Of a DNA stretch of 64,000 nt, positions 5,071 to 48,001 are shown in pieces. The position numbers and the translations under genes were made by a program. The stretch covers positions 81,685-145,684 of the forward strand of contig JBAZKF010000001.1 in NCBI GenBank assembly GCA_041650895.1, written 5' to 3'. The notes beneath the pieces are model-generated. The model was not told where the DNA came from. It did not search any database and saw only the letters and a program-made list of their open reading frames with translations. The stretch's first letter is position 1, and every line of letters begins with the position of its first letter. The DNA comes from Patescibacteria group bacterium. Lineage in GTDB: Bacteria > Patescibacteriota > Patescibacteriia > 2-01-FULL-39-33.

Positions 5071-7161
5071 TTATTTTGCCATCCTGACATCAACTACTTT
5101 TACTCCCCTGCCCCTATCCAGCACCATAATCGGATTAAAATCAATTTCTTTCAGTTCCGGATATTTTGCTACCAGACAAGAAAATCTTACCAATAAATCA
5201 GCCAAAGCGCCAATATCAGCCGGTTTTTGGCCGCGCGTACCGGCTAAAAGCGGATAGATTTTCAATTCTTCAATCATTTTTTGCGCTTCATTTTTGTTAA
5301 TAGGCGCCACACGAAAGACTACGTCCTTAAACACTTCTGTATAAATTCCGCCTAAACCAAGCATAATAACGGCGCCGAATTGAGGATCTCGCTTTAGGCC
5401 GACAATCACTTGTTGGCCGCTAACCATCTCGCCTAAAAGATACCCCTTAATTTTGACTCCTTTGACTTTCTGAACAATATCCGTGTTCATCTTTTTTATA
5501 GCGGCCAGCAATTCCGTCTCATTATTTATGCCCACTTTAACCCCGCCTACATCGGACTTATGTATTACTTGAGGCGAAATAACTTTAAGTGCAATGGGGT
5601 AACCGACTCTTTTACCGGCCTTGGCGGCTAAGGAAATATCTGCAATAAACTCGGCGCGGTGCACTGGGATATCATTTTTAATCAGTAGTTGCCGACAGAC
5701 ATCCTCCGTCAATTCATTGGATAATATTTTATTGGGCTTAATGGCGGGGGCTTTTACTGTCGGTTGTTTATTTTTGAGGTATTGGTAATATTTGGCCATA
5801 GTGCTTAAGACACTGACGGCCTGCTCAGGAAAGTTGAATTGCGGTAATTTATTATCGGCAAAAGTCTGATAATATTTGACAATCTCCAATTCACCCAAAA
5901 AACATAGGACGATTGTTTTACTTGTGGTTTTTTTGATTCGGCCGATCGCTTCAGCCGTCTCTTTTATCTGCGTCATTCTCTGCGGGGTTAGCGCTACGAT
6001 TATGGCGTCAACGTTCTTATCTTTAACCACTTCGCGCAGAGCGATCTCATAACGGTCAGCCAGAGCATCACCTAAAACATCAACCGGATTATGGTTGCTG
6101 GCTGCGGCCGGTAAAACTTTTTTTAATTTAGCTTTGGTCGTTTCAGATAATTCGGCTAATTTTAATTTATAGTCTGGCAACCAGTCAGTCAAAAGAATGC
6201 CCGGGCCGCCGGCGTTGGTGACAATAGCCACGCGATTGCCGCGAGGTAAATCTTGGTAGGCAAAACCCTCAGCCAAATTAAAAAAATCCATAACATCACG
6301 CGCCTCAATCACGCCGGATTGCTTAAAGGCGGCGCTATAAACCTGGGCAGTGCCAGCCAGCGATCCGGTATGGGAAGAAACAGCTTGACTGCCGTCCGCG
6401 GTCTTACCTGATTTTAAAACAATAATCGGCTTTTTATCGGAAATTTTATTGGCTATAGATAAGAACTTTTGGCCATCATTAATGCTTTCCAGATAAGCCA
6501 TTATGACCTTGCTGTTTTTATCTTGGTTGAAATATTCCAAAAGATCCAGTTCGTTAATATCACACTTATTGCCCATGGACACAAAATAAGAAAAGCCGAG
6601 TTTCTGGGCTTCGGCCGTATCTAAAATAGCCGTACCTAAAGCGCCGGATTGGGAAAAGAAGGCTACATTGCCCGCCTTGGGGAAGGTGGCGGCAAAGGAA
6701 GCGTTTACTGACGGCTTAGTATTGATATAACCTAAGCAGTTCGGACCGAGTATCCGCAGTTTATATTTATTTTTTAATTGCAGTAATTTTTCTTCCAATT
6801 TAACTCCCTCACCGCCAACTTCTTTAAAACCAGAAGAAATAATCAAAATATTTTTTGTTCCTCTCTTGCCACAATCTTCCACTACAGCCAATACAAATTG
6901 CGCCGGCACGACAATAATCGCTAAATCAGGAATCTGTGGCGTTTTTAAAATTGACGAATATGCCGGCTTGCCCTCTATCTTGGTTTCAGAAGGATTAATG
7001 GGAAAAATCTCGCCCCGGTAATTGACCAAGAGATTCTTTATCACATCATTGCCGACTTTACCGGTATGATTGGAGGCGCCGATTATTGCTACGCTTCGCG
7101 GGTTAAAAAACGATTTAAGGCTATTCATAGTATCTAATTTATAATAATCTAATTTTACCAT
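5071..7161 (-). CDS. acetyl-CoA synthetase (ADP-forming), fused alpha/beta subunits (NDP-forming acyl-CoA synthetase family)
   Basis: CoA-binding N-terminus SVAIIGASNHTGKVGNDVIKNL, succinyl-CoA-synthetase-like ligase domain, C-terminal ATP-grasp. 696 aa. Confidence 0.8.
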   Translation of the reverse strand: MVKLDYYKLDTMNSLKSFFNPRSVAIIGASNHTGKVGNDVIKNLLVNYRGEIFPINPSETKIEGKPAYSSILKTPQIPDLAIIVVPAQFVLAVVEDCGKRGTKNILIISSGFKEVGGEGVKLEEKLLQLKNKYKLRILGPNCLGYINTKPSVNASFAATFPKAGNVAFFSQSGALGTAILDTAEAQKLGFSYFVSMGNKCDINELDLLEYFNQDKNSKVIMAYLESINDGQKFLSIANKISDKKPIIVLKSGKTADGSQAVSSHTGSLAGTAQVYSAAFKQSGVIEARDVMDFFNLAEGFAYQDLPRGNRVAIVTNAGGPGILLTDWLPDYKLKLAELSETTKAKLKKVLPAAASNHNPVDVLGDALADRYEIALREVVKDKNVDAIIVALTPQRMTQIKETAEAIGRIKKTTSKTIVLCFLGELEIVKYYQTFADNKLPQFNFPEQAVSVLSTMAKYYQYLKNKQPTVKAPAIKPNKILSNELTEDVCRQLLIKNDIPVHRAEFIADISLAAKAGKRVGYPIALKVISPQVIHKSDVGGVKVGINNETELLAAIKKMNTDIVQKVKGVKIKGYLLGEMVSGQQVIVGLKRDPQFGAVIMLGLGGIYTEVFKDVVFRVAPINKNEAQKMIEELKIYPLLAGTRGQKPADIGALADLLVRFSCLVAKYPELKEIDFNPIMVLDRGRGVKVVDVRMAK

Positions 7162-7232
7162 AAATATCCGATTCAGCCAAAATAAAAAGCGGGTTAACTA
7201 AAGCAACCCGCTAACTCTGATAAAAAGAGCAA

Positions 7233-7565
7233 TTAATTGTAATTGGCAACCCGAATTTCAGCGCCGTCGCTGAAACCTCCGCCAGCCGCCATTGCCGCTC
7301 CGCCGGCCCCGCCAGCTAAGCCGGCCCCGCCAACCAAAGTGTACACATTGGAACTAGCCACTAACTCCGCTAATGCACCCTCAAGGGCAAGCGGGTTACC
7401 AATCGGCACTGGCGAATCGATCACCGCTCCGTTTTGATTGGCATTATTAGTAATGGGTACAGATAATGATTGAGTCTGGGCTTCAAGCTTATTGCTAGTG
7501 AAGTTTCCTCCGATGATTGAAAGAGCGATTAGGCTGATAAAAATCCACAACACTTTCTTTTTCAT
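7233..7565 (-). CDS. small secreted Gly/Ala-rich protein
   Basis: Likely true start MKKKVLWIFISLIALSIIGG (signal peptide) with Shine-Dalgarno AGGAGGG. C-terminal poly-Gly/Ala tract. Hairpin plus T-run terminator at about 7180-7215. Confidence 0.5.
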   Translation of the reverse strand: MKKKVLWIFISLIALSIIGGNFTSNKLEAQTQSLSVPITNNANQNGAVIDSPVPIGNPLALEGALAELVASSNVYTLVGGAGLAGGAGGAAMAAGGGFSDGAEIRVANYN

Positions 7566-7716
7566 GGTTTTCCCTCCTGTTGCAGTCTCTTTTACAAAAA
7601 ACAATTAAGTGCTTATTACTATAAACTAAATAACAAATTAAGTCAAATAAAAACATTAACAATTAAAAAAACTGACTCGAAATTAATCGAGTCAGCGGTC
7701 TGAAATGTTCTAGGTT

Positions 7717-7781
7717 GGCCCAGTCAATGCCGCTGATAATAAGCGGCAGGTCGTATACACGTCATTGCCGTCGCCATCAAC
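7717..7781 (-). pseudogene. decayed duplicate of a 66-bp internal segment of the downstream lipoprotein gene
   Basis: 7717-7781 matches 8133-8198 (inside the CDS at 8037-8921) except for a 1-nt indel and one substitution. The indel breaks the frame, so this is a remnant. Confidence 0.5.
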
Positions 7782-8036
7782 AATTACGGTTTTTTAACTT
7801 CCTTAATTATCGCTCGTTTTACCATCGGAGCGAAAAAATCATCGCCCCTCAATAAACGAAGCCACTGCTGCCCAGTTTGTCCGTGTTTTTTATAATTATT
7901 AGATATTAGAGAATTTTCTGCCTCCATTATTGAGGTAAATGGCCCCCTAACATCAATATCATCGGAATGGGATTTGGTGATAATAATTACGTAATTTCCA
8001 GTCCCCATCTCTACTATCCTTTCAAATGTTCTAGTC

Positions 8037-8921
8037 CTAGTCTTCCCAGGCGAAATCAATGTTTACATTCAGCCCCCCAAACGCGTCCGATTCCACGTAA
8101 GGAAAGGACAACGCATCAGAGAAACTGAATTCGGCCCAGTCAATGCCGCTGATAATAAGCGGCAGGTCGCAATACACGTCATTGCCGTCGCCATCAACGA
8201 CGTAGAGTACGCCACCGCCGAAGTTTAGTGGCAGGTAGGACTTAAAGACCATTTCCGCCTTGCCCCAAACCCATGAGGCATAGTAACTCGCGCCGTCCGG
8301 AGAAATCAGCGTTGAATGACCATATCCCCACTCATCAGCCTGATACCAACCGGGCAGGTTGGTGACGCTAAATTGGAAAGGATAGTTGTAAACAAAGTTC
8401 ATCACCAGGTTTTCATTCCTGTTGATGCCACCCTCCACGGTAACATCCTTCCAGCCAAACAATAGCTGATTGCCGTAGTCATCCTGGAAAGAGATAGACA
8501 GGTAGTAAGTCCCGGGCCGAATTCCGCCGCAATGAGCGCGGAATTGATGGTCGATGATCGGCACATAGAAGGAGTAATAATCGGTCCCGCCTCCCTTACC
8601 TATTTCCACTCCATTATCGGTAGAATATAGGTAGATGTAAATGCGTGTGGCCTGATCCTTGAGTGAATCTCCAATTTCTTGGAGTTCCTCCTGATTCAAG
8701 CCACTAATTCCGTCGCCGTTGTAACCGCCACCCTTTTCCAGGGATTTGGTCACTTCGCCGACGAAATCGTGGTTGATCTTTTCGACGACGGCCGACAAAT
8801 CTCCTTCGATCCAGAACCCGCCGAGTTCGGCTTCGGGGATGGTTTCGGTAATCGGCGGACAGCCCGCCAGAGTCATAGCCGAGACAGTCAGAATGGCAAA
8901 GAGAATGGTAGTGTAACGCAT
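8037..8921 (-). CDS. lipoprotein, hypothetical
   Basis: N-terminus MRYTTILFAILTVSAMTLAGCPP has a signal peptide and a lipobox (LAGC). 294 aa. Confidence 0.6.
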   Translation of the reverse strand: MRYTTILFAILTVSAMTLAGCPPITETIPEAELGGFWIEGDLSAVVEKINHDFVGEVTKSLEKGGGYNGDGISGLNQEELQEIGDSLKDQATRIYIYLYSTDNGVEIGKGGGTDYYSFYVPIIDHQFRAHCGGIRPGTYYLSISFQDDYGNQLLFGWKDVTVEGGINRNENLVMNFVYNYPFQFSVTNLPGWYQADEWGYGHSTLISPDGASYYASWVWGKAEMVFKSYLPLNFGGGVLYVVDGDGNDVYCDLPLIISGIDWAEFSFSDALSFPYVESDAFGGLNVNIDFAWED

Positions 8922-9150
8922 GATGCTTTCCTCCTAAGGTAAGATTGTAACGACCCACACATCAGCCCCACATTAGGACTAATACATAATCATATCATAC
9001 TTTGTTAATTTTGTCAATAGGTTTATCCACTCTGCCAGATAGTTGATTACAATTTTAGCCAAATTTAGACAAAATTAATTATGATAAAACAAAAAGATAA
9101 CTAAAAAAGCCGGCAAAAACCGGCTTTTTTATCTAAAATTAAATTATTAC

Positions 9151-11796
9151 CTATTTTCCATTATTTTCCTTAATCACCGCCTGGGCCGCGGCTAACCGAG
9201 CAATCGGTACGCGGAATGGCGAACAAGACACATAATTAAAACCTTCACGATGACAGAAATTGACAGTTTTGGGTTCTCCGCCATGTTCGCCACAGATGCC
9301 AATCTTCAAGTCTTCTTTGGCGCTTCTGCCTTTCTTAATGGCGATGCGGATAAGCTCGCCGATGCCTTCCTGATCAAGCACTTCAAAAGGATCATATTCA
9401 AAAATACCTTGAGTCACATATTCTTTCAAGAATTTTCCAGCGTCATCACGGGATAAACCGGCGCCCATCTGAGTCAGGTCATTAGTGCCGAAAGAAAAGA
9501 ATTCTGCTCCGGCCTCCACAATCTTATCAGCAATCAGCGCCGCGCGAGGCACTTCAATCATGGTACCGATTTTGTATTTTAATTGGCTATTGGCAGTGGT
9601 CAATTTTTCTTCCACCACCTTAACGATGCGTTCTTTGAGGATAGAGAACTCTTTGACTGTAGCGACCAAAGGAATCATGATTTCCGGTTCCACTTTAATC
9701 CCCTCTTTTTCTACGGCAATCGCCGCTTCAATCACGGCCGCGGCTTGCATGTCATTGATTTCCGGATAAGTGATGGCCAAACGGCAGCCACGATGACCCA
9801 GCATGGGGTTAAATTCGTGTAAATCGTCAATTTTGGTTTTCAACACCTCAATCGGCACATTCATTTCAGCAGAAAGTTCCGCAATGTCTTTTTCTTCTTT
9901 GGGCAAGAATTCATGCAATGGCGGATCTAGGAAGCGAATAGTTACGGCATGGCCATCCATAGCCTTAAACAAACCGATAAAATCTTTTCTTTGATAGGGT
10001 AACAGTTTAGCCAGGGCTTTTTCTCGGCCGGCTATATCAGAAGCTAAAATCATTTCTCTGACAGCTTTGATTCTATCACCCTCAAAAAACATATGCTCGG
10101 TGCGGCATAAGCCGATGCCCTCAGCGCCGAATTTTCTGGCGACCATGGCATCATGAGGCGTGTCAGCGTTAGTGCGAATCTTAAGTTTTCTAACTTCATC
10201 GGCCCAATCCATTAAGGTACCGAAGTTACCGGAAAGTTCCGGATCCTTGGTGCCAAGCTTGCCGTTATACACTTCGCCAGTGGAGCCATCCAAAGAGATA
10301 AATTCTCCTTCTTTTAACGTCAGACCCTTATCTTTAATAGTTAAGGTTCTGGCTTTTTCATCAATAATGATGTCAGCGCAACCGGCAACGCAACAAGTGC
10401 CCATACCGCGGGCCACCACGGCCGCGTGAGAGGTCATACCGCCTCGAGCAGTCAAAATGCCTTTGGCCGAATGCATACCGTCAATATCTTCAGGAGAGGT
10501 TTCGGTGCGGACCAAGATGACATCCAAACCGGCTTGAGTTTTTTCAAACGCTTCAGTGGCAGTAAAAACGACTTCACCGACAGCCGCTCCGGGAGAAGCC
10601 GGCAAACCGCGAGCAATAACTTCACCTTCGGTTTTAGCCAAAGGATCCAGTTGTTTATGTAATAATTGATTTAATTGATTCGGTTCTACGCGCATTAAAG
10701 CTTCATCTTTGGAGATTGCTCCTTCGGTAACTAATTCTACAGCGATGCGCACAGCGGCCGCGGCAGTTCTTTTGCCGTTTCTGGCCTGCAGAATAAATAA
10801 TCGCCCTTGCTGAATGGTGAATTCCATATCTTGCATATCGCGATAATGTTTTTCTACTGTATTGCAAGTATCAACCAACTCTTTGTAAATAGCCGGATTC
10901 TGTTGTTCCAAAGTGGATACGGCAAGCGGAGTACGAATACCGGCGACCACATCTTCGCCTTGCGCGTTCATTAAATATTCGCCATAAAATTTGGCTTCGC
11001 CGGTAGAGGGATTGCGGGTAAAGCAAACACCTGTGCCCGAATCTTCTCCCAGGTTGCCGAACACCATGGTCTGAATATTAACAGCGGTGCCGATCAATCC
11101 CTTAATATCATTGATTTGGCGGTAGCGGATGGCGCGATAGTTGTTCCAAGAATTAAACACGGCATTGATCGCAGCATATAGCTGATCAATCGGGTCTTGC
11201 GGGAAATCCACTCCTTTGACTTCTTTGATTTTAGCTTTATAGCGATTGGCGACTTCCTGCAAATCTTCGGCCGTCAAATCAGTGTCAAATTTAGCACCCT
11301 TGGTATCTTTGACATTCTCCAAAATATGTTCGAATTCGGCATGCTCCACTTCCATCACCACATTACCAAACATTTGAATCAAACGACGATAAGAATCCCA
11401 AGCAAAACGGGCGTTGCCGGTCTTGGTGGCCAAACCCAAAACGGATTGGTCGTTAAGGCCTAAATTCAAAATTGTATCCATCATGCCAGGTAAAGAAGCC
11501 GCGGCGCCAGAGCGAACGGAAACTAATAACGGATCATTGGCATCGCCCAAAGTCTTGGACATCTTTTCTTCCAACTGTTTTAATTTGGTGTTGGTTTGTT
11601 CCTTGACTTCATCAGTGATGGTTTTGCCGGCTTTGTAATACAAATCGCAAACTTCGGTAGTTAAGGTAAATCCCGGAGGGACATTAATACCCAGACTGGA
11701 CATTTCCGCCAAGTTGGCGCCTTTGCCGCCGAGAAGTTCTTTCATGCTTTTATTCCCTTCTTCAAAGGAATAGACGTACTTTTTCACATCAGACAT
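9151..11796 (-). CDS. ppdK: pyruvate, phosphate dikinase
   Basis: 881 aa. N-terminus ...FEEGNKSMKELLGGKGANLAEMSSLGINVPPGFTLTTEVC, central phospho-His domain, C-terminal PEP-utilising domain. Bidirectional terminator at 9103-9132. Confidence 0.93.
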   Translation of the reverse strand: MSDVKKYVYSFEEGNKSMKELLGGKGANLAEMSSLGINVPPGFTLTTEVCDLYYKAGKTITDEVKEQTNTKLKQLEEKMSKTLGDANDPLLVSVRSGAAASLPGMMDTILNLGLNDQSVLGLATKTGNARFAWDSYRRLIQMFGNVVMEVEHAEFEHILENVKDTKGAKFDTDLTAEDLQEVANRYKAKIKEVKGVDFPQDPIDQLYAAINAVFNSWNNYRAIRYRQINDIKGLIGTAVNIQTMVFGNLGEDSGTGVCFTRNPSTGEAKFYGEYLMNAQGEDVVAGIRTPLAVSTLEQQNPAIYKELVDTCNTVEKHYRDMQDMEFTIQQGRLFILQARNGKRTAAAAVRIAVELVTEGAISKDEALMRVEPNQLNQLLHKQLDPLAKTEGEVIARGLPASPGAAVGEVVFTATEAFEKTQAGLDVILVRTETSPEDIDGMHSAKGILTARGGMTSHAAVVARGMGTCCVAGCADIIIDEKARTLTIKDKGLTLKEGEFISLDGSTGEVYNGKLGTKDPELSGNFGTLMDWADEVRKLKIRTNADTPHDAMVARKFGAEGIGLCRTEHMFFEGDRIKAVREMILASDIAGREKALAKLLPYQRKDFIGLFKAMDGHAVTIRFLDPPLHEFLPKEEKDIAELSAEMNVPIEVLKTKIDDLHEFNPMLGHRGCRLAITYPEINDMQAAAVIEAAIAVEKEGIKVEPEIMIPLVATVKEFSILKERIVKVVEEKLTTANSQLKYKIGTMIEVPRAALIADKIVEAGAEFFSFGTNDLTQMGAGLSRDDAGKFLKEYVTQGIFEYDPFEVLDQEGIGELIRIAIKKGRSAKEDLKIGICGEHGGEPKTVNFCHREGFNYVSCSPFRVPIARLAAAQAVIKENNGK

Positions 11797-38136: not shown

Positions 38137-38176
38137 CTCCTTTTATTGTAAAGACATGACTAAACGAACCTTCTAA

Positions 38177-38382
38177 TGCTGTATTTTAAAGATAGCTCGA
38201 ACGCATTTTGGCTGTCCGCCAGAGGCGGACGCAGATTTTCTTCCCGACGAAATCCAATCCTGATTCTGATTTACGGCAATTTCCAGTTTTTCAATGAGTT
38301 AATCATAACTCATTTCAGTAAATTTTTCAAGAGCTGATTTATTGAAAAATTTACTGGGTTTGGCGGCAAATTCTTTTAGCTC
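38177..38382. repeat. composite inverted repeat L: inverted copy of Q (40066-40160) fused to inverted copy of S (40417-40525)
   Basis: 38179-38273 is the reverse complement of 40066-40160 and 38274-38382 is the reverse complement of 40417-40525. Both are essentially identical by eye. Confidence 0.8.
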
Positions 38383-38450
38383 TTTGAAAATTAAATAAAA
38401 AAAGAGGTGGCCGTCAACCGTGTTGACTTCCACCTCGGGTACTAATCGAC

Positions 38451-39824
38451 TTACTCGATTCTATCTAAGAATCCCAAAATCGATTTCTCTAACTCCGGAT
38501 GTCTGCGTATCTTGTCCGCATAGTGCCTTTTCTGCTTATCCGCAGAGTGATACTCGCTGACGATCTCTTGGCGCGCCCGATCCCATTGTTTCTGATCCAT
38601 TCCGGTTTTGTAGATGACCTTGTCTGTTGTGTAGTCGTCATAGCCGGTAATGGTGTCGCCGGGATTCAATCGGTTTGCCGTTACTGTTCCAGGAAACGGC
38701 ACTTCAAAACTGACACGTAACTGGTCGGCTCGAAACGGCAAAGATTCGAGAGCTTGCTTTTCAGCTTCAACATCGGTGGCAGTCATGCCAAGACCGCCGA
38801 TCATGAAATATGCGCGTGTCAGAATTCCAGCTTCGTCGCACAAGCCATAAGCCAACTCAGGATTTCCGGGTCGTTTGCCTCTTTCAGTGCGGACATCAGT
38901 TCGAGCAAATTCCAAGCCCATCATCGCCATAAATATTCCGGCGCGCTTCATGGCCTGCACCATTTCGCGATCCAAATTGAAATCAGGCAGACAGAAAGCG
39001 GGAAACGGACCTCGTTTTTCCATTTGCTGGCAGAGTTCCATTACCCAACCGCGGTCGGCGTTGAATAACGGATTGGCGATGATGTAAACAAGACCCGGTC
39101 CGAATCGTTTATCGAGCGCGCACATCTCATCGACGATATTGGTCGGCGAACGATGTAGGGTCTTGGGCGACATTATCCACGATGAACAATAGTCGCACCG
39201 GCCGTCGCAACCGAATGATCCGGCGATTGTGATACGTTTTGTCGGGTTTTTGATCAGTGTTTCCGGTGGGGCGAAGAGAATTTCATTCTTCGTGAATCTC
39301 GCCATGAACTCCTCAAAACGCAACGGCCACGGCAAGTCATCTAACGGATAAGGAGATTGACAGCCACCAGACAACTCTCTGACTTGAACAACACCTCGTT
39401 TGGCGCTACCAGCAGAGATATCATCCAACAACTGTGGCAATGCTCTCTCGCCTCGTCCCTTTACTACGAAATCGGCTCGTCCCTCTTCAAAAACTACCTT
39501 GGCCATTCTACCGACTCCTGCATGGTATCCGCCGTAAATGATCGGCACCTTCCCCTTGAAATTTTCGGCCACGCGATCGGCCAAAGATTTCGTATAGCTG
39601 TAAGGGAAAAGAGCCACTGCATCACAATCGCCGGCCTTGACGGCGGAGATAATCTGTTCTACTTGTGCGGTATCTTGCCGTACATAGCGAACTGACCAGC
39701 CAGCAAATTGTTCGACGCAAGCCGCAACAAGTTGAGCGCCGATTTCTTCCCGACCGATTCGGGTTTGACCGCTACGATCGGTTACAACCGATAAATCTGT
39801 GTCAACAAAAACAATCGTTGGCAT
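38451..39824 (-). CDS. B12-binding radical SAM protein (class B-like)
   Basis: N-terminal Rossmann-like B12-binding domain. CDGRCDYC (C-x3-C-x2-C) radical SAM cluster motif. 457 aa. GC visibly higher (about 50%) than the flanks. Strong Shine-Dalgarno AAAGGAGGG. Confidence 0.85.
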   Translation of the reverse strand: MPTIVFVDTDLSVVTDRSGQTRIGREEIGAQLVAACVEQFAGWSVRYVRQDTAQVEQIISAVKAGDCDAVALFPYSYTKSLADRVAENFKGKVPIIYGGYHAGVGRMAKVVFEEGRADFVVKGRGERALPQLLDDISAGSAKRGVVQVRELSGGCQSPYPLDDLPWPLRFEEFMARFTKNEILFAPPETLIKNPTKRITIAGSFGCDGRCDYCSSWIMSPKTLHRSPTNIVDEMCALDKRFGPGLVYIIANPLFNADRGWVMELCQQMEKRGPFPAFCLPDFNLDREMVQAMKRAGIFMAMMGLEFARTDVRTERGKRPGNPELAYGLCDEAGILTRAYFMIGGLGMTATDVEAEKQALESLPFRADQLRVSFEVPFPGTVTANRLNPGDTITGYDDYTTDKVIYKTGMDQKQWDRARQEIVSEYHSADKQKRHYADKIRRHPELEKSILGFLDRIE

Positions 39825-39900
39825 AAAACCCTCCTTTCAGTCGAGTTTTGCTAATAACACCTGATGTTTCAAAGAACATCCCTCACATTGGGAATATCCA

Positions 39901-39929
39901 ATTTTAGCAAATATTTATCAAAATGTCAA
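39901..39929 (-). promoter_or_regulatory. sigma-70-like promoter of the radical SAM gene
   Basis: Minus strand TTGACA (39924-39929), 17-bp spacer, TAAAAT (39901-39906). Confidence 0.5.
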
Positions 39930-40018
39930 CCCAAATAAAAAATGTCTGAAATGCGTCAAAAAAAACAGAAATCATAATAATTTCTGCAGTCAAATAAACA
40001 TAAAAATTTTCTTTTACC

Positions 40019-40259
40019 AAAATGCGGTTCGACCCGATATTTTTTCCGGTTCTTTGGCGGTTTTTTAAATCAGAATCAGGATTGGATTTCGTCGGGAAGA
40101 AAATCTGCGTCCGCCTCTGGCGGACAGCCAAAATGCGTTCGAGCTATCTTTAAAATACAGCACCAGAAAGGAATAGTCAAATTTTTCCGCTCCTCGCCAC
40201 CGCAGGCGGCGACCAAATCATACGGAATTTTATAATCAAAAAGTAATTGGCGGTTTTGT
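40019..40259. repeat. repeat block m (40019-40045), P (40046-40065), Q (40066-40160), IRa (40161-40259)
   Basis: m is the reverse complement of 41737-41763. P is the reverse complement of 40542-40561. Q is the reverse complement of 38179-38273. IRa is the reverse complement of 41764-41862 with 1 mismatch in 99. Confidence 0.8.
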
Positions 40260-40338
40260 CTGAATATTAATTCAGGGTAAAAGAAAAATTTTATGTTTAT
40301 TTGTCATTATCAGAATTAAATTATCATTAAAATATCAA

Positions 40339-41899
40339 TATGAAATACTTCATTTACGCTCGCAAGAGCACCGAAGACGAGGATCGTCAGATACTTTCAA
40401 TCGAAGCTCAGATTACTGAGCTAAAAGAATTTGCCGCCAAACCCAGTAAATTTTTCAATAAATCAGCTCTTGAAAAATTTACTGAAATGAGTTATGATTA
40501 ACTCATTGAAAAACTGGAAATTGCCGATTCATTTTTTGAATCAAAAACCGCCAAAGAACCGGGCCGAAAGATTTTCGGCGAAATACTGGCCAGAATAGAG
40601 CAAGGCCAAGCTGATGGCATCCTATCGTGGCATCCAGATCGCTTGGCGCGTAATAGCGTTGACGGTGGCAAGATTATTCATTTGGTTGATAGAGGAGTGA
40701 TAAAGGCCCTCAAATTTCCTTGCTTCTGGTTTGAACCCACCCCGCAAGGATTATTTATGCTAAATATCGCTTTCGGCCAATCAAAATATTTTGTGGACAA
40801 TTTACGGGAGAACGTAAAGCGAGGATTAAGACAAAAGCTAAGGAACGGTGTTTGGCCGTCTTTTGCGCCAGTGGGCTATCTAAACAATGCGAGAACTCGA
40901 GGCATTGATGTGGATACTGTTAAGAGCGACAAAATCAGGAAAGTGTTTGAACTTTACGCCACTGGCAATTATGCGCTTTTGTCTTTAGTTAATTGGTGCG
41001 AAGCTAACGGCTTGACTGGCGGTTATCATCGCAAATTGTCCGTTAATGCGATATTTAGCATGTTACAAAATATTTTCTACCTTGGTTTGATGCGCTACAA
41101 GGGTGAAGTATTTGAGGGCACTCACGAGCCATTAATATCAAAGAAATTGTTTGAAGAGGTGCAAAAAGTGCGCAATACCCGAGCGAGGACACGAAAAAAA
41201 TTACACAGAGAGTTTGCATTTACTGGACTAATGAAATGCTTGTGCGGTTGCTTCATTACCGCAGAAACACAGAAAGGCCACAACTATTATCGTTGTACGA
41301 AAAAACGAGGCGAATGCACTGAAAAGCACTTTTTGCGCGAGGAAGAATTGGAATCACAAATCAAACAATATCTTCAAACAATTGCTTTGAACGACCAAGA
41401 CCAGGAAAAGATTATGATTGAGTTGGACAAAGACGAACTAACAGCCAAAACGCAAGCTCAGACCAATGTTCAAAATCTCAAAAGCGAGTTAGAGAATATT
41501 AATCAGCAATTAGAGAAACTGCTTGATGTCTATTTGAGCGATACAATCTCGACTGACGAATACACCGCTAGAAAACAAAAAATCCTAACTCGCAAGTTAG
41601 AACTTAATGAGAAAATCAAAGATTTTGAACATAATAACTGGTCTTGGGTCGAACCGGCTCGTGAGTTTATTTTATCGCTCAACCAAGCTGATAATCTGCT
41701 ACGAAATTCAGAAAAGTCAGATCTGGCCGCATTTCTAAAAAATATCGGGTCGAACCGCATTTTACAAAACCGCCAATTGCTTTTTGATTATAAAATTCCG
41801 TATGATTTGGTCGCCGCCTGCGGTGGCGAGGAGCGGAAAAATTTGACTATTCCTTTCTGGTGCGCCCAGCTGGACTCGAACCAGCGACCATCAGCTTAA
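40339..41899 (+). pseudogene. large serine recombinase (resolvase/invertase N-domain, recombinase domain, zinc ribbon, coiled coil), disrupted
   Basis: N-terminus MKYFIYARKSTEDEDRQILSIEAQITELKEFAAK carries the catalytic Ser motif. An insertion of about 70 bp with an in-frame TAA at 40498-40500 follows. The frame then resumes as LEIADSFFESKTAKEPG, and a +1 shift in a G4 run (40560-40563) leads into RKIFGEILARIEQGQADGILSWHPDRLARN... (track ORF 40643-41899). The zinc ribbon CLCGCFITAETQKGHNYYRCTKKRGEC is present. The last 42 nt overlap tRNA-Lys. Confidence 0.7.
41737..41862. repeat. inverted repeats m' (41737-41763) and IRb (41764-41862)
   Basis: Reverse complements of 40019-40045 and 40161-40259. 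IRb ends 5 nt into the CCA end of tRNA-Lys. Confidence 0.8.
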
Positions 41900-41933
41900 A
41901 AGGCTGTTGCTCTACCGACTGAGCTATAGGCGC
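41858..41933 (-). tRNA. tRNA-Lys (anticodon UUU), CCA encoded
   Basis: Manual fold of gcgcctatagctcagtcggtagagcaacagccttttaagctgatggtcgctggttcgagtccagctgggcgcacca: 7-bp acceptor stem, D stem gctc/gagc, anticodon loop cuUUUaa, T-loop ttcgagt. Confidence 0.9.
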
Positions 41934-42103
41934 GTAATGTTTAGTATTAAATTGTTTTATCTTTCTTAGTTGCTGTTCGACCTGTCGGTCGAAGTTGCTC
42001 TTCCTCAACAGCGCTGATTTTATGAAACTATTTAATATTATACAGTAAATAATTTCTTTTGGCAAGTCCCTTGTGGAGAAATAAATCAAAACAAATATTG
42101 CTC

Positions 42104-42132
42104 TTGACAAAATATTAAAAATACTGTAAGAT
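42104..42132 (+). promoter_or_regulatory. sigma-70-like promoter of the 42208-44506 operon
   Basis: TTGACA (42104-42109), 17-bp spacer, TAAGAT (42127-42132). About 75-nt leader. Shine-Dalgarno AGGAG. Confidence 0.5.
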
Positions 42133-42207
42133 ATGTTGAAGTTCGTTAAAAGCACTTTAAAACTTAATGTTTCAGATTAGCCGTTAAACAGCCAACCGCC
42201 CAAATCA

Positions 42208-42765
42208 TTGGGCAAAATAGGAGAAAAAGCCATGGCCCCGCATTGTCTGCTACCCAATTGTATACTACTCATCTTCCTTTTTCTTGTTGCCTTGCAAATC
42301 ACGCCGTTTATAATTTTTTGGGCCTGGCTAAGCTGTTCCGCGATCAAGGCATTTGTTACCGACAATAAATCCTGGCACTTGAGTAAAAAACAGGATTGGT
42401 TTCTCTATAACTTTTGCCTATACCGATCTTTTCTTTACGAGGTTGTTAGTTTTACGGAACTTAGCGATGATATTGAGCGTGGCTATCAAGCAATAAAAAG
42501 CACCAACAACAATTACTTGGTTGTTATAAGGGATGTACTTATTATTTATCTTATTAACCTCATCATCTTGGCCATCTCATTCTTTGCCCTAACGGTTATA
42601 TTAGTAGTCGTTACCATAACTTTCCCGATCAGTCTTTATGTTTTCCTGGCCATGTCAGGGTTCGCTTTGATCATTGGGACTGGTTATGTGTCCTTACGCC
42701 TGGCGCGTTTCTTCTATCGCCTGCAAAGAAGGCTGAACATATCCGGAGAAAAAATAAAGTTTTAA
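42208..42765 (+). CDS. membrane protein, hypothetical (paralog A)
   Basis: Three predicted transmembrane helices. C-terminal motif LRLARFFYRLQRRLNISGEKIKF shared with the next gene. Confidence 0.5.
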   Translation: MGKIGEKAMAPHCLLPNCILLIFLFLVALQITPFIIFWAWLSCSAIKAFVTDNKSWHLSKKQDWFLYNFCLYRSFLYEVVSFTELSDDIERGYQAIKSTNNNYLVVIRDVLIIYLINLIILAISFFALTVILVVVTITFPISLYVFLAMSGFALIIGTGYVSLRLARFFYRLQRRLNISGEKIKF

Positions 42766-42792
42766 AACCGCAACCAATTGGGAGGATAAAAA

Positions 42793-43296
42793 ATGCATTC
42801 CTTCATGCCCTTTGCCGGCTGGCTTTTCCTAATGGTCTTTGTCTTGACCCCCGTCTCTTACTACAGCTGTTTGCTTATCAATTGGACTATTCTTTATGTT
42901 AAAGACGAAAAATGGCAAGCCTCCAAAACAATCAGGGATCTGCGTTATTATCTCTGTTGGGAGTGGCTGATTTCTGGAATTCTCGATGTGCTGAACCGAA
43001 CAGAAAATAACTTGCTAGACCTAACAGGAAATAACTATTATGATAACATCTTAAAGGAAGGCATAGACTACTACATCGGAATTCCCTTTATTGCGAATGT
43101 CATTATGTTTATTTTCTTTATTTGCGTTACTCTGGTGAGTCTGATAATTCTTATAGAATTTGGCTTATTCTGGCTCTTAGCAATATTGGGGCTGATACTC
43201 TGTGCCGCGATTTATTACCTTGTTATTCGCTTGATACGCTTCTTCTATCGTATGCAAAAAAAATTAAACAAAAAAGGCAAAGAGGTGGCTTTTTGA
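42793..43296 (+). CDS. membrane protein, hypothetical (paralog B)
   Basis: Shine-Dalgarno GGAGG. Same topology as paralog A. C-terminus VIRLIRFFYRMQKKLNKKGKEVAF. Confidence 0.5.
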   Translation: MHSFMPFAGWLFLMVFVLTPVSYYSCLLINWTILYVKDEKWQASKTIRDLRYYLCWEWLISGILDVLNRTENNLLDLTGNNYYDNILKEGIDYYIGIPFIANVIMFIFFICVTLVSLIILIEFGLFWLLAILGLILCAAIYYLVIRLIRFFYRMQKKLNKKGKEVAF

Positions 43297-43378
43297 GAAC
43301 CGCCGGAAACCAACATATGAGCCAAACCCGTCTTGCGCTCATAGAACTAAACACTGTTATATCGGATAGGAGGCATGA

Positions 43379-44506
43379 ATGACGAATAAAGAAAATCCCG
43401 ATGCCATTACTTTACCAAAAATCAAAGGAGTGGTAGAAATACCCAACTGCGGACTTTATGCCAAGGGTCCGCGAAAATTAAGAAAGCTCTTTGAGTGGCT
43501 AAGCCAATACTACGATATTGAGGACTGTTCCAAGAATGAAAGCTACCCCTCTCCCGGCACTTGGTATGCCAGAATAAAGCCGAGCTTGGTGCATGAATGT
43601 GTCAAATGTAATTGGTGCGGATCCTATATAAACCCAGTGGGAGTCGGTATCCATGGTCATCGTTGCGAAATCTGCAATAAGATAACAATGGAAAGATTCA
43701 CCCATAACGGCACGATCCGTTTCCGTTTCGCAGATGACTGCGATATTTCCGATATTGAAATGAGAATATTCGGCTATGATGACGCTACCGAAAGCATACT
43801 GCTCTATCCGAATATAGTATCAAGCGAAAGATGCTTCATACTTACACAACAACAAGCTCATAAAAAATTCAAAAGATTTTCTGCTAGCTGGCAAGAGGTG
43901 GAACGCAACGGCCAAAAGCTGATCGCCATCCCCAGAAGCAATATTAATTCGGTTGAGATCATAGGCCAAAAAAGACATTATAAAGCAGTCAGACTATTTG
44001 CCGGTAAAGAGTACGATGGTTGGCCCCTCAACGATCTGCCCGTCACTGAGTCATACATGATTTATGAGGCCTGGCGTTGGGCGCCACTTAGGCCATCGCC
44101 AAAACTGCACGAGAGCATAATCCATGCCGCAGGCATGGTCAGTCGAGTTGATTTTTATTATCAGGATGGTCGCCGGGCCTTTGACGACATTCACCTTCAA
44201 CGCATGCGGCGATTTGTCCATCATTTTACCACTCTTGACCTTAATGAGTGGGATCGGATGATCAGCCAAAATGATTTATCCGGCCCAAGCATGATTAGGG
44301 CGATCGCTCGTCTCTGCCACCCCAACGCACAAGTACGAAATAAACCGAACATCAGCAATTTAATTGACGCCACTGCTAAAATCGCTGATGGAGAAAGTCT
44401 TTGTATGAATGAAATGATGGCCGCAGCCGATGCTCTGAAAAATCCCAGAATCTGCAGGGAGTTCATTGATATTATGGGATGTGGTATCAAAATCCAAAAC
44501 ATATAA
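43379..44506 (+). CDS. hypothetical protein with N-terminal zinc ribbon
   Basis: Shine-Dalgarno AGGAGG. CVKCNWCGSY...HRCEICNK (C-x2-C...C-x2-C). 375 aa, no other recognisable motif. Terminator at 44521-44555. Confidence 0.5.
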   Translation: MTNKENPDAITLPKIKGVVEIPNCGLYAKGPRKLRKLFEWLSQYYDIEDCSKNESYPSPGTWYARIKPSLVHECVKCNWCGSYINPVGVGIHGHRCEICNKITMERFTHNGTIRFRFADDCDISDIEMRIFGYDDATESILLYPNIVSSERCFILTQQQAHKKFKRFSASWQEVERNGQKLIAIPRSNINSVEIIGQKRHYKAVRLFAGKEYDGWPLNDLPVTESYMIYEAWRWAPLRPSPKLHESIIHAAGMVSRVDFYYQDGRRAFDDIHLQRMRRFVHHFTTLDLNEWDRMISQNDLSGPSMIRAIARLCHPNAQVRNKPNISNLIDATAKIADGESLCMNEMMAAADALKNPRICREFIDIMGCGIKIQNI

Positions 44507-44666
44507 AACAAAACAAGCACCTTACGGAGCTCCGGCCAAACTGGAGCTCTTTTTAATTTCCGCCTTCTTAATATTAAGAAGGCTTTTTTAATACAAAATT
44601 TTAACACAAAAAAAGCCGGCGCCATAAAGCAACCGGCCCTAACAAAAAGTTTCAAATGAGCAAAAG

Positions 44667-45455
44667 TCAAATGGAAAGGGAGGAACGATAACCGTCGAGC
44701 TGTTCCTTCCAAACCTGAAGGAGTTTTGGCTGAGCCGGTTCTGTTACAAACCATTGAACCTTTTGCCAATACGACAAATAAGGTGACGGATTAAATAGAC
44801 GATCACTAAGAGCTAACTGCTCAATCAATGCCCGGCCATTGGAAAATTCTGCGAATAAGCTATTAACAGCACGGATACCAGTCAGACCCAAATCAGCCCA
44901 AGTTACCAGGATTTCGCCATCACTTGAAGCCAACTCTTTGGCTATAGGCGGAGCAGATTCATCACTCTCAACTAATATTTCAAACATGCGCCGGTTAGGC
45001 AGACGATCGCCTGCCGATACATAACAGCCGTTTGCTGTCGGCCATAACACAATCCCGCACTTCTTAAAATGGATAAAACAAGAAGCACACAAAGAAATTC
45101 GCAAATCAAATTTACTCTTTTGACCTTCCACTAAGCGGAAATTCCACCAATTGCTGGGCAAAAAATCCGAATTATTTTCTTGCGGATTATTATCCACTAA
45201 AGTAAAAATTTCATTATAGCAATCGGGACGCAGTTGCTGCCGAATCCCTAGGGAAGCCAAAACCGCCAGCAATCTATTATCCAATACATATTCTTTAATC
45301 GGTTTGGAAGACGCTCCCGGCCGATCCGAATATAAATAGCCAAACTCCAACCCCTTAAAGGCTATGGCCTTTTGCAGAAGATCCGATTCCGTTAAAGCTT
45401 CTTGACCGACTACCAAAGGTCCGAACATTGGAGGCGAAACGACTTTATTTCCCAT
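44667..45455 (-). CDS. hypothetical protein (262 aa)
   Basis: Long ORF convergent with the preceding operon. No motif recognised. Confidence 0.4.
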   Translation of the reverse strand: MGNKVVSPPMFGPLVVGQEALTESDLLQKAIAFKGLEFGYLYSDRPGASSKPIKEYVLDNRLLAVLASLGIRQQLRPDCYNEIFTLVDNNPQENNSDFLPSNWWNFRLVEGQKSKFDLRISLCASCFIHFKKCGIVLWPTANGCYVSAGDRLPNRRMFEILVESDESAPPIAKELASSDGEILVTWADLGLTGIRAVNSLFAEFSNGRALIEQLALSDRLFNPSPYLSYWQKVQWFVTEPAQPKLLQVWKEQLDGYRSSLSI

Positions 45456-45671
45456 AATCCTACTCCTTTCTATTGTTGTTCAGTACTGTTTAAAGTGCGA
45501 ATTAAACAAAATCTGTCTAATTGTCTGGATAGAGATTACAACAAAGTGGGCAAAAAAGCAAGCCTTTGGACCTAATAAAGTTATACCCCTTGGCGTGTGC
45601 ATAAACTGTCCAAAACTCTTCAAAACCGGTGGTTTGCCAAGGTGGGACAATTAAGGTAAAATGTAAGGGAC

Positions 45672-47069
45672 TTGAATGCCCTAAAGGTGACAAATATGTC
45701 CGACAACTCCTTACGCAAACTGCCGCCGCAAAACCTGGAAGCCGAGCAATCGCTTTTAGGCGCTTTATTGATTGACAAGGATGCCATTATCAAAATCGCC
45801 GATCTCATCACATCCGAAGATTTTTACCAGACGGCGCACGGCATTATCTATTCTGTCATTTTGGAATTGTTTGAACGCAAAGATCCGATTGACATTTTAA
45901 GTTTGAGTAGCCGATTGAATGAATTGGGTAAAATCGATCTGGTTGGCGGACGCAGTTATCTGATTACCCTGACCAACCAAGTGCCTTCGGCGGCGCATGT
46001 CGTATCTTATGCGCAAATCATCCAGAAAAAAGCCACCCTGCGCCGACTGATTGCCGCCGCTTCCAATATTTTGGATCTGGGCTATCAAGAAGACAAAGAA
46101 GTCAACGAAATCCTGGACAAGTCCGAGCAGTCTGTTTTCGCGGTTTCGCAAAAATTCTTAAAAGAAAAATTCACCCACATCAAAGATGTGCTGACTGGCG
46201 CCTTTGACCGCATTGACGAATTGCATCGCGAGAAAGGCAAGTTGCGCGGTTTGCCCACCGGCTTTACTGAAATGGATAACGTTTTAGGGGGGTTGCAAAA
46301 ATCCGATTTGATTATTCTGGCCGCCCGCCCTTCGGTCGGCAAGACGGCTTTGGCCTTGGATATCGCCCGCAACGCCGCCATCCGCCACAAAAAATCCGTC
46401 GGCATCTTCTCGTTGGAAATGTCCAAGGAGCAATTAGTTGATCGTTTGATTTCTGGCGAAGCAGGAGTAGATATGTGGAAGATGCGTACCGGCCGACTAT
46501 CCGAAGCCGGCGAAGATTTCCCCCGTATCGGCCACGCCATGAGCGAATTGTCGGAAAGCAATATTTTTATTGACGATTTTGCCAACACTAATGTCATGGA
46601 ACTCCGCACCAAGGCGCGAAGATTGCAAATTGAACATGGACTGGATTTGATCATCCTGGATTATTTGCAATTAATGGAGGGTTCGGGTAGCCGCCAATCA
46701 TCGGAAAGCCGCGTGCAAGAAATCGCCGAAATATCCCGCGCTCTTAAGGGTTTGGCGCGCGAACTCAATATCCCCGTTTTGGCGCTATCCCAGTTATCCC
46801 GCGCCGTGGAAATGAATAAGCCGGCCATCCCTAAGTTATCGCATTTGCGCGAATCCGGCTCCATTGAACAGGACGCGGATGTGGTTATGTTTATTTATCG
46901 CAAGGCCTCCGACAGGAATTTTGACATCAATTCCTTAACCGAAGAAGAAAAGCACTCGGCGGAAATCCATGTCGCCAAACACCGCAATGGCCCGACCGGC
47001 CTGGTGCATTTGTATTTTGAAGGCAATACTGTATCATTTAAAAATTTAGACAGAAGCTATAATCAATAA
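45672..47069 (+). CDS. dnaB: replicative DNA helicase
   Basis: N-terminus LPPQNLEAEQSLLGALL. Walker A GARPSVGKTALAL. RecA-like C-domain. 465 aa. Confidence 0.95.
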   Translation: MNALKVTNMSDNSLRKLPPQNLEAEQSLLGALLIDKDAIIKIADLITSEDFYQTAHGIIYSVILELFERKDPIDILSLSSRLNELGKIDLVGGRSYLITLTNQVPSAAHVVSYAQIIQKKATLRRLIAAASNILDLGYQEDKEVNEILDKSEQSVFAVSQKFLKEKFTHIKDVLTGAFDRIDELHREKGKLRGLPTGFTEMDNVLGGLQKSDLIILAARPSVGKTALALDIARNAAIRHKKSVGIFSLEMSKEQLVDRLISGEAGVDMWKMRTGRLSEAGEDFPRIGHAMSELSESNIFIDDFANTNVMELRTKARRLQIEHGLDLIILDYLQLMEGSGSRQSSESRVQEIAEISRALKGLARELNIPVLALSQLSRAVEMNKPAIPKLSHLRESGSIEQDADVVMFIYRKASDRNFDINSLTEEEKHSAEIHVAKHRNGPTGLVHLYFEGNTVSFKNLDRSYNQ

Positions 47070-47168: not shown

Positions 47169-47465
47169 ATGTTCAGTAAAATCAAAGCCATTCAGGATTT
47201 AAAAAATCAAGCCAACACCATCAAAAAAGCCTTAGCTGAAGAAGCAATTGAAGGCCAAGGCGGTTGGGGCAAAGTGAAAATCTCCATGGATGGTAATCAG
47301 GAAGTCAAATCCGTAGTCATTGATCAGGAAATCGTGGGCGATAAAACCAAACTGGAAACGGCCGTCAAAGAAGCGGTCAATGACGCCGTCAAAAAAGTCC
47401 AGCGCGTCATGGCCAACAAGATGTCGCAAATGGGCGGACTCAATATTCCGGGAATGGGCAAATAA
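47169..47465 (+). CDS. ybaB: nucleoid-associated protein YbaB/EbfC family
   Basis: 98 aa. MFSK...QANTIKKALAEEAIEGQGGWGKVKISMDGNQEVKSVVIDQEIV is canonical. Confidence 0.9.
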   Translation: MFSKIKAIQDLKNQANTIKKALAEEAIEGQGGWGKVKISMDGNQEVKSVVIDQEIVGDKTKLETAVKEAVNDAVKKVQRVMANKMSQMGGLNIPGMGK

Positions 47466-47554: not shown

Positions 47555-48001
47555 CTACAAGCCTAATAACTCTCTTTCCAGTGATGTCAATCTATGTTTA
47601 AGGTGGCTATTCCTCTTTATATGACCGCGCAATCGCGGTATCTCTTTCTCTGAAAGAATTTCTATCAAGGAGGGACAACTGCCGGAAACCGACTTCTTCC
47701 CAGAAGGCCATACAAAATCGGCAGTATTCGGGATAAAACCATTCCGGCCATCCTGAGTCAAAACAAGGACCTCCCTGACAACCCCATCTCCGCCCCACCA
47801 GCCGATGCCATAACTGGCGATTGAGGCCAGAATTGAATCATCATAAAATCCCCGAGAATCAAAATCACAGGCCAAGCATACTGAGTGTTCGCGCTTACTG
47901 CTAAGAACTTCATAGCATCTGGCTAAACGCCAACCGGACAAATCCTGCAAATCTGTCAAATCAAGAATGGTTTGTTTAGGTATTACTCGTTTTTTAGGCA
48001 T
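47555..48001 (-). CDS. hypothetical protein (148 aa)
   Basis: ORF only. Bidirectional terminator at 48200-48235 upstream. Confidence 0.4.
   Translation of the reverse strand: MPKKRVIPKQTILDLTDLQDLSGWRLARCYEVLSSKREHSVCLACDFDSRGFYDDSILASIASYGIGWWGGDGVVREVLVLTQDGRNGFIPNTADFVWPSGKKSVSGSCPSLIEILSEKEIPRLRGHIKRNSHLKHRLTSLERELLGL

Follow-up and report, generated by a model that had tools for sequence, protein, structure and literature searches.

What is an operon of hypothetical proteins doing between a tRNA gene and dnaB in a Patescibacteria genome, and how did it get there? The locus in question lies in a 64,000-nt stretch (hereafter the window) of the 957,791-bp contig JBAZKF010000001.1, positions 81,685 to 145,684, from assembly GCA_041650895.1, a metagenome-assembled genome (MAG) of Patescibacteria, or candidate phyla radiation (CPR). 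It comprises two small membrane protein genes (memA and memB), the gene of a 375-aa protein with a zinc ribbon, and a convergent gene of a 262-aa protein. A first-pass annotation, made from the sequence alone, had read these four genes as one accessory island, of the defence, toxin or surface-variation kind, just beyond a tRNA and recombinase junction. Our analysis points to a composite locus, not one system, whose components have three separate histories. We tentatively favor the reading of the operon as an old accessory cassette from a mobile element, with a zinc-ribbon protein that binds nucleic acid and membrane paralogs as clade-specific partners, the 262-aa gene being separate.

Locus layout and expression signals

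The features of the locus, in window coordinates, are:
41858-41933, minus strand: tRNA-Lys (anticodon UUU), detected by ARAGORN and as Rfam tRNA (73.9 bits)
42037-42065, minus strand: promoter-like TTGCCA-17-TATAAT (11/12 consensus matches, called by consensus match alone), facing tRNA-Lys and divergent from the operon promoter
42104-42132, plus strand: promoter-like TTGACA-17-TAAGAT of the operon (10/12 consensus matches)
42232-42765, plus strand: memA, 177-aa small membrane protein
42793-43296, plus strand: memB, 167-aa paralog of memA
43379-44506, plus strand: gene of the 375-aa, putatively cytoplasmic zinc-ribbon protein
44526-44550 and 44562-44583, plus strand: tandem intrinsic-terminator-like hairpins with T runs, closing the operon
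44667-45455, minus strand: gene of the 262-aa protein, convergent with the operon
45672-47069, plus strand: dnaB (TIGR00665, 1.3e-162)
47169-47465, plus strand: ybaB, downstream of dnaB

The four locus proteins are deposited as NCBI MFA5124323-MFA5124326 (locus tags WC473_00650-00665), every one labelled "hypothetical protein". None of them matched a family in Pfam, NCBIfam, PHROGs or PADLOC, even at permissive thresholds (with E<=1, PADLOC-DB v2 gave no family for the four proteins; with E<=0.1, Pfam gave none for the 375-aa protein). This agrees with their first description as uncharacterized, and no housekeeping family emerged for any of them from the hidden Markov model libraries.

Tightly spaced between a promoter with its ~90-nt leader and a double terminator, memA, memB and the 375-aa gene are predicted to form one transcription unit. 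Each gene is preceded by a GGAG-type Shine-Dalgarno sequence (AGGAG for memA, GGGAGG for memB, AGGAGG for the 375-aa gene). The mechanically called memA open reading frame (ORF) opens at TTG 42208. The true start is ATG 42232, because an AGGAG is found 7 nt upstream, the start in the sister genome is aligned with it and the public gene calls agree; this makes the leader ~90 nt long, not 75 nt as first given. The other elements of the first-pass annotation were all present: the four ORFs, the tRNA-Lys, the TTGACA/TAAGAT promoter, the strong Shine-Dalgarno sites and the convergent gene before dnaB. Its terminator was also there, as two in tandem rather than one.

Promoter-like sites in the region were no more frequent than expected by chance (11 vs 8.5 ± 2.7 in shuffled sequence), and the operon promoter motif by itself is weak evidence. 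The sister genome, a Candidatus Buchananbacteria MAG (L001/L010), keeps the -35 box of this promoter and much of the leader, and this conservation adds to the evidence. The leader (42140-42231) was more conserved with L001 than the memA coding sequence. Its conserved parts, in the two sequences compared, were TTGAAGTTYGTTAAAAGCACTTTAAAA and a small hairpin, GCCYAA-loop-TTGGGC, directly before the Shine-Dalgarno sequence. Leader RNA folding was no better than that of shuffled sequence (z = -0.19 and -0.81), and the tRNA was the only match in an Rfam scan of the region.

The 375-aa protein and its domains

Two segments of the 375-aa gene are referred to below:
43607-43675, plus strand: zinc-ribbon segment C77-x2-C80...H92-x-H94-x-C96-x2-C99, from the 97-sequence alignment
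43991-44413, plus strand: conserved core of the family (~residues 205-345), from alignments

The protein lacks transmembrane segments and a signal peptide, and it is predicted to be cytoplasmic. An AlphaFold2 (AF2) model based on a 34-sequence alignment had a predicted local distance difference test (pLDDT) score of 91.8 and a predicted template modeling (pTM) score of 0.80. In this model, an N-terminal alpha/beta module (~17-75) is followed by the ribbon, a beta-rich middle and a helical C-terminal domain (243-366). Residues 112-185 are modelled as beta-beta-beta-alpha-beta-beta, an order like that of an OB-type barrel, and further strands follow.

The N-terminal C-x2-C...C-x2-C ribbon of the first-pass annotation was borne out by the alignment. 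Across 97 full-length members, conservation is 97-99% at C77, C80, C96 and C99, and 89% at H92. With a CxxC-x15-CxxC spacing and a model that is confident in this region, the segment has the predicted make-up of a four-Cys, two-knuckle zinc ribbon.

Conservation in the core is concentrated in the motifs E-x-Y-x-I-Y-E-A-W-x-W-A-P-L, L-H-E-x-I-I-x-A-A-G-M-V-S, Y-Y-Q-D-G-R, S-G-P-G-M-I and P-N-I-G-N. Strongly conserved positions in the C-terminal half of the 97 members further included P221, Y260-Q262-D263-G264, G302-P303, I306, A310 and P323-N324. Natural short forms of 230-265 aa consist of the N-terminal module and the C-terminal domain, without the ribbon and the beta-rich middle. Since they keep the C-terminal domain and lose the ribbon and barrels, the C-terminal domain can be considered the family core, and the ribbon plus barrels would represent an accessory module of the 375-aa family.

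Searches by structure and by profile left the protein without relatives of known fold. Foldseek returned nothing significant for the 375-aa model, either against the PDB (best E 0.058, template modeling score (TM) ~0.13) or against the BFVD viral models (best E 0.077). The weak matches were to small beta-barrels only, and those to Cas9, MreC and PYL (E 0.06-0.08, TM ~0.1) were treated as noise. Compared with PDB sequences, the family profile had nothing below E=0.19. A weak match to the "GGPAMIR" of PurH was dismissed, the PurH domain being alpha/beta and the one here helical. Two candidate active sites were also rejected. In a Cys-His-Asp triad H244/D263/C313, both H244 and C313 were <85% conserved in the 97-sequence alignment, and a HExxH-type metal site at H244-E245...H249 had the wrong spacing and a non-conserved H249. 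A TnpB-type (IS200/IS605) identity was discarded, as there was no match to OrfB_IS605 or OrfB_Zn_ribbon and the ribbon is located in the N-terminal third. Structure prediction and fold search, which had been proposed at the outset for this protein and the 262-aa protein, gave confident models for both and PDB neighbors for neither. As far as tested, the 375-aa family appears undescribed and structurally orphan.

One unusually long member, P0099 (2017 aa), carries the family region at 264-649, a signal-peptide-like N-terminus and a HAD-like DxDxT motif. It also has a PHP phosphoesterase domain of the RNase RNM / pAp-phosphatase type at 900-1013, a fusion seen in P0099 alone among the long members. 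P0099 may be a real multi-domain fusion or a gene-calling read-through, and it was given little weight.

A rare and patchy family

A word-indexed search retrieved 34 family matches. When 1.84 billion representatives were searched exhaustively with a profile, the family amounted to 234 clusters (50% identity). A set of 185,579 species genomes yielded only 10 loci. They belonged to Buchananbacteria, Saccharibacteria, Gracilibacteria, Collierbacteria, unclassified Patescibacteria, a Nanoarchaeota single-amplified genome (SAG) and three MAGs labelled Proteobacteria; the archaeal identity of the SAG was confirmed by an adjoining split RpoB. Another 31 loci came from metagenomes, and one from an IMG/VR contig.

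When ~25 independent contexts were compared, the neighbors of the family gene kept changing. All-against-all ORF clustering of 51 loci revealed no neighbor that was conserved beyond close relatives. Some of the contexts contain genes of mobile elements. In Collierbacteria (L015/L030), an intact large serine recombinase, related to that of the window, is convergent with the family gene and 47 nt away from it. Within 7 kb, L015 also has an omega-repressor-like gene, a PADLOC PDC-M68B match (1.6e-52) and an Argonaute-associated SMEK-type N-terminal domain (5.4e-45), and the region resembles a defence island carried by an integrative element. Genes for a DUF4145 protein and a TPR protein were additionally seen in L015 (433-5120 and 9133-11553). 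IS200-type Y1 transposases are found beside the family gene in L013 and L049, DNA-ligase adenylation-domain genes are near it in L003, and an RNase H gene overlaps it in L017. On an 81.5-kb phage-like contig, a short form is placed amid Cas4-like exonuclease, SbcC-like and ParB-like proteins and DnaB. The family is rare, patchy, clearly accessory, previously undescribed and apparently horizontally spread.

L040, a metagenome contig with a distant member (26% identity), also has eight tRNA genes within 4.5 kb (5316-9814). Such tRNA arrays are often seen in large phages.

The membrane paralogs and the 262-aa gene have other histories

BLASTP aligned MemA and MemB over 173 columns with 30% identity (E=4e-12). 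Both begin with a hydrophobic segment, continue with a hydrophilic loop of ~55 aa and a double transmembrane block, and end in a basic tail with the motif RFFYR[LM]Q[RK][RK]LNxxG[EK] (memA tail, RFFYRLQRRLNISGEKIKF). The two genes are thus true paralogs, as first proposed on the basis of layout and tail motif. The memA ortholog in L001 is 54-55% identical, and no counterpart of memB was found there. Among 5.8 billion proteins, a search with memB returned only itself, and a scan of viral contigs gave no relatives of either protein. The memA/memB family was seen only in the window and in the organism of sister L001. A likeness to the T4SS (type IV secretion system) pilin-like proteins common in CPR (PF18895) was rejected, with no Pfam match and an hhalign probability of 0.5% for the memA/memB family against two PF18895-annotated CPR proteins.

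The 262-aa gene, which public gene calls start at M10 (253 aa), belongs to a family of 26 relatives of ~250 aa with 42-70% identity, restricted to CPR. Its AF2 model (pLDDT 91.0, pTM 0.84) had a best Foldseek E of 0.43 against the PDB, the family profile had no match at all among PDB sequences, and the viral-contig scan found no relatives. In four other CPR genomes, the family is found amid a CCA-adding enzyme gene, S15-NYN-PNPase, DnaB-RecR, ClpB and a small T4SS-pilin-like gene, and it never adjoins a 375-family gene. From this distribution, the 262-aa gene looks like a vertically inherited CPR gene, evolutionarily unlinked to the operon. The idea of four genes as one module is thus not upheld: the 262-aa family occurs elsewhere without the 375-aa family, and the membrane protein family is limited to the clade. 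A convergent 283-aa gene beside the L003 homolog of the 375-aa gene was checked and is unrelated to the 262-aa gene.

Part of the context of the 262-aa family is semi-conserved. In L006 (5015-5449) and L053 (5984-6454), it includes the CCA-adding enzyme gene and rpsO-NYN-PNPase, and a small Cys-containing T4SS-pilin-like (PF18895) membrane protein is encoded directly beside the family gene. This context hints at a chromosomal, possibly envelope-related role.

Age and selection

The sister genome is collinear with the window across the whole region. Both have, in the same order, glycosyltransferases, tRNA-Lys, one membrane gene, the 375-aa gene (384 aa in L001), the convergent 262-aa gene (259 aa in L001), dnaB, ybaB, murE and a penicillin-binding protein (PBP) gene. 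Amino-acid identities between the two were 96% for DnaB, 91% for YbaB, 89% for MurE and PBP, 82-87% for the glycosyltransferases, 71% for both the 375-aa and the 262-aa protein, and 54% for memA. The synonymous divergence (dS) was 0.7-1.2 for locus and core genes alike. The ratio of nonsynonymous to synonymous divergence (dN/dS) was 0.22-0.28 for three locus genes vs 0.03-0.10 for core genes, and the cassette evolves 3-10 times faster than its neighbors. Because gene order and dS are the same in the sister, the cassette was present in the common ancestor, and is old and vertically inherited here; the comparison is with one relative, L001. The cassette is functional, under purifying but relaxed selection. 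A check of synteny, as suggested in the first-pass annotation, thus had two outcomes: the 375-aa family is sporadic among genomes, but the operon is syntenic in L001.

The sister genome lacks a 148-aa ORF (47555-48001, minus strand) that in the window separates ybaB from the conserved gene after it; the interval holding it measures ~750 bp in the window vs ~40 bp in L001. The only match of this ORF was a weak one in PHROGs (phrog_5370, E=0.0011), and it could represent an independent small insertion.

A decayed integrative element at the 3' end of the tRNA

The recombinase side of the tRNA-Lys contains the following features:
40340-41899, plus strand: large serine recombinase, probably a pseudogene (Pfam Resolvase, Recombinase, Zn_ribbon_recom)
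38451-39824, minus strand: B12-binding radical-SAM gene, missing from L001
37693-38136, minus strand: HAD-hydrolase gene, missing from L001
38274-38382 / 40418-40526: inverted repeat, 109 nt, 100%
38171-38273 / 40066-40168: inverted repeat, 103 nt, 98%
40160-40259 / 41764-41863: inverted repeat, 100 nt, 99%, ending 6 nt inside tRNA-Lys
40019-40045 / 41737-41763: inverted repeat

The recombinase is collinear, in a single frame, with residues 1-530 of the intact 562-aa L015 homolog (tblastn). The frame is broken by one in-frame TAA (codon 54, 40499-40501) in a 41-nt palindromic insert, and the gene is probably a pseudogene. The palindrome (CAGTAAATTTTTCAA...TTGAAAAATTTACTG) is present twice, at 40444-40484 and 38316-38356; the copy in the recombinase, with the sequence just after it, brings in the sole in-frame stop. 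The 3' end of the recombinase overlaps the 3' end of the tRNA-Lys, which is at the same place in L001, and the operon lies on the 5' (promoter) side of the tRNA. Situated between the recombinase remnant and the glycosyltransferase genes, the radical-SAM and HAD genes are likely cargo of a decayed integrative element at tRNA-Lys. L001 keeps only fragments of the recombinase-side region. This region is best explained as a decaying integrative element, with the operon outside it, across the tRNA and the tRNA promoter.

The inverted repeats (38171-41863) surround the B12-radical-SAM gene and the broken recombinase. Arms that adjoin each other in one copy are separated and in a different order in the other; repeated inversions could have produced this pattern, as could an assembly artefact. 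Parts of the repeats are 88-96% identical to L001 at the nucleotide level, vs ~78% for flanking coding DNA. L001 itself has a 33-nt direct repeat (6801-6833 / 6997-7029), composed of the tRNA-Lys 5' end and 14 nt upstream. The two copies, both upstream of the operon, are separated by 196 nt, and between them is a GC-rich stretch that the window lacks; the repeat may be an integration or duplication scar on the tRNA promoter side, or a decayed second tRNA. A literature search on Patescibacteria, large serine recombinases and prophages found nothing.

Origin and possible function of the operon

The reading that we tentatively favor is as follows. The transcription unit is placed between tRNA-Lys and the conserved block of the 262-aa gene, dnaB and ybaB in a small Buchananbacteria-like Patescibacteria clade. 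The 375-aa gene would have entered this lineage on a mobile element and later been retained; elsewhere it seems to be a solitary insertion, sometimes beside genes of mobile elements. Because of the ribbon and of residues 112-185, whose strands in the AF2 model follow an OB-like order, we infer that the ribbon and the small beta-barrel-like modules after it bind nucleic acid, most likely DNA. The conserved helical C-terminal domain would be an effector or interaction module. The three-pass membrane paralogs may tether or modulate the 375-aa protein with their basic cytoplasmic tails, without being a conserved part of the function of the 375-aa family, and the 262-aa gene would merely happen to converge on the operon.

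Several observations weigh against this reading. Most neighbors of the family elsewhere are plain housekeeping genes (GatB, EF-Tu, YchF, LemA, M23 peptidase). A tRNA was found within ~1 kb in ~4/25 independent contexts, which by a rough estimate is about the chance level for ~1 Mb genomes, and tRNA adjacency was hence not counted as evidence. No tRNA-derived direct (att-like) repeat bounds the operon within 41700-45800, and the clade showed no presence/absence polymorphism in the one relative examined. The 375-aa family had no homology or fold match to DNA-binding or other known families, and with tblastn the protein had no match in GenBank phages or PLSDB plasmids. Finally, only apparent co-transcription, in two related genomes, ties the membrane proteins to the 375-aa protein.

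The locus resembles tRNA-linked integrative islands in that the window recombinase abuts the tRNA-Lys 3' end, with cargo on the far side. It differs from them in that the element is decayed and separated from the operon by the tRNA; moreover, no att-like repeat was found at the operon, which the sister also carries and whose dS matches that of core genes. With the recombinase on the 3' side, no att-like repeat and a sister copy of the same age, the concept of a tRNA island therefore does not apply cleanly to the operon (42232-44506). The operon does adjoin the tRNA, as first described, but the junction with the recombinase and its cargo on the 3' side is not the boundary of the operon. The observations behind the first-pass annotation were confirmed, and its accessory-island interpretation is partly supported: the 375-aa family is rare, patchy and accessory, but tRNA-derived repeats, absence from the sister and a deviating dS were not found. 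No signature of a defence, toxin or surface-variation module was found, and the operon is neither a recognizable defence system nor a cleanly bounded tRNA island.

The 375-aa family, with its confident model and no known relatives, can be read in another way, which we consider a minor possibility. The 375-aa protein would be a new family, possibly with a new fold, that moves among CPR, DPANN archaea and phages and has an undescribed replication/recombination accessory or defence/counter-defence function, coupled here to membrane proteins. As an accessory factor it could, for example, set the directionality of large serine recombinases. Among the zinc-ribbon accessory proteins of phage replication and recombination modules are phiC31 gp3 and Bxb1 gp47, the non-homologous recombination directionality factors of serine integrases. 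Like such phage proteins, the family has a short form in the replication/recombination module of the phage-like contig, and full-length forms are beside large serine recombinases in L015/L030 and <1.5 kb from one in the window. Unlike what would be expected of them, tblastn gave no similarity to proteins of GenBank phages, phiC31 and Bxb1 included, and most family members have no recombinase nearby.

A clade-specific cellular function without relation to mobile elements, for example in membrane or envelope biology or in the episymbiosis of CPR and DPANN, is about as doubtful. The basic tails of the membrane proteins would then recruit the 375-aa protein, which would act in the cytoplasm as a regulator or adaptor. 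Vertical inheritance at the chromosomal position of the sister, purifying selection, the conserved promoter and leader, and the many homologs among housekeeping genes would all fit, as would the concentration of the family in CPR and DPANN, which share a lifestyle. The very patchy occurrence within CPR and the mere 10 loci in all species genomes do not, nor do the missing conserved neighbor and the homologs on a phage-like contig and beside recombinases and transposases. A defence or abortive-infection module, with the zinc-ribbon protein as a sensor of phage nucleic acid or protein and the membrane proteins as effectors that depolarize or permeabilize the membrane, is unlikely. It has in common with two-component abortive-infection systems the operon architecture (small membrane proteins co-transcribed with a cytoplasmic protein), the fast evolution indicated by dN/dS, the patchiness, and one homolog in a defence-island-like region, namely in L015, between the intact serine recombinase and the PADLOC-matching genes plus DUF4145. 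It differs in that no PADLOC model matches the four proteins or the L015 homolog itself, and in that the membrane partners, seen in the window and sister only, are not conserved with the family. Moreover, defence genes are neighbors in one lineage only, and the short form in a phage replication module argues against a role restricted to hosts.

A selfish mobile gene, of a new transposase, nuclease or homing type, that inserts singly between host genes is very unlikely. The 375-aa gene is indeed solitary, in a different context in nearly every genome, it crosses domains (CPR, DPANN, phage-like contig), it encodes a zinc ribbon, and it was twice beside IS200-type Y1 transposases, loosely recalling TnpA-TnpB pairs. 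But there was no Pfam match of any kind (OrfB_IS605, OrfB_Zn_ribbon, HNH or RuvC among others), the 15-residue spacing and the position of the ribbon are unlike those in TnpB and HNH proteins, the Cas9 Foldseek matches are noise (E >=0.06, TM ~0.13), no terminal repeats were found around the gene, and it has kept its position since the two sister genomes diverged. Hardly credible is a lysis cassette left by a prophage, with memA/memB as holin/antiholin-like proteins and the 375-aa protein as a novel lysin or lysis regulator. Holins are small, multi-pass proteins with a charged C-terminal tail. Like holin/antiholin pairs, memA and memB are small tandem paralogs that have hydrophobic blocks, end in a strongly basic cytoplasmic tail and precede a larger gene; a decayed recombinase element is nearby. 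Unlike those pairs, they have no holin-family or PHROG match and no viral-contig relatives, and neither an adjacent lysin domain nor phage structural, lysis or other phage genes were found in the flanks. The 375-aa protein lacks a signal peptide, a transmembrane segment and a muralytic domain, its predicted cytoplasmic zinc ribbon is atypical for lysins, and its family is not paired with holin-like genes elsewhere.

Implications

Unannotated genes and families are the norm in CPR and DPANN, and one more hypothetical operon is unsurprising. The picture of a tRNA, a recombinase and an operon of unknown proteins can mislead, since the real decayed element here lies across the tRNA from the operon. 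The analysis delimits the 375-aa family, with ~234 clusters, a domain layout, near-invariant residues, short and long forms, and a confident orphan model. Its occurrence across CPR, in a Nanoarchaeota cell and on a phage-like contig makes it a candidate marker of gene flow via the mobile elements of ultra-small episymbionts.

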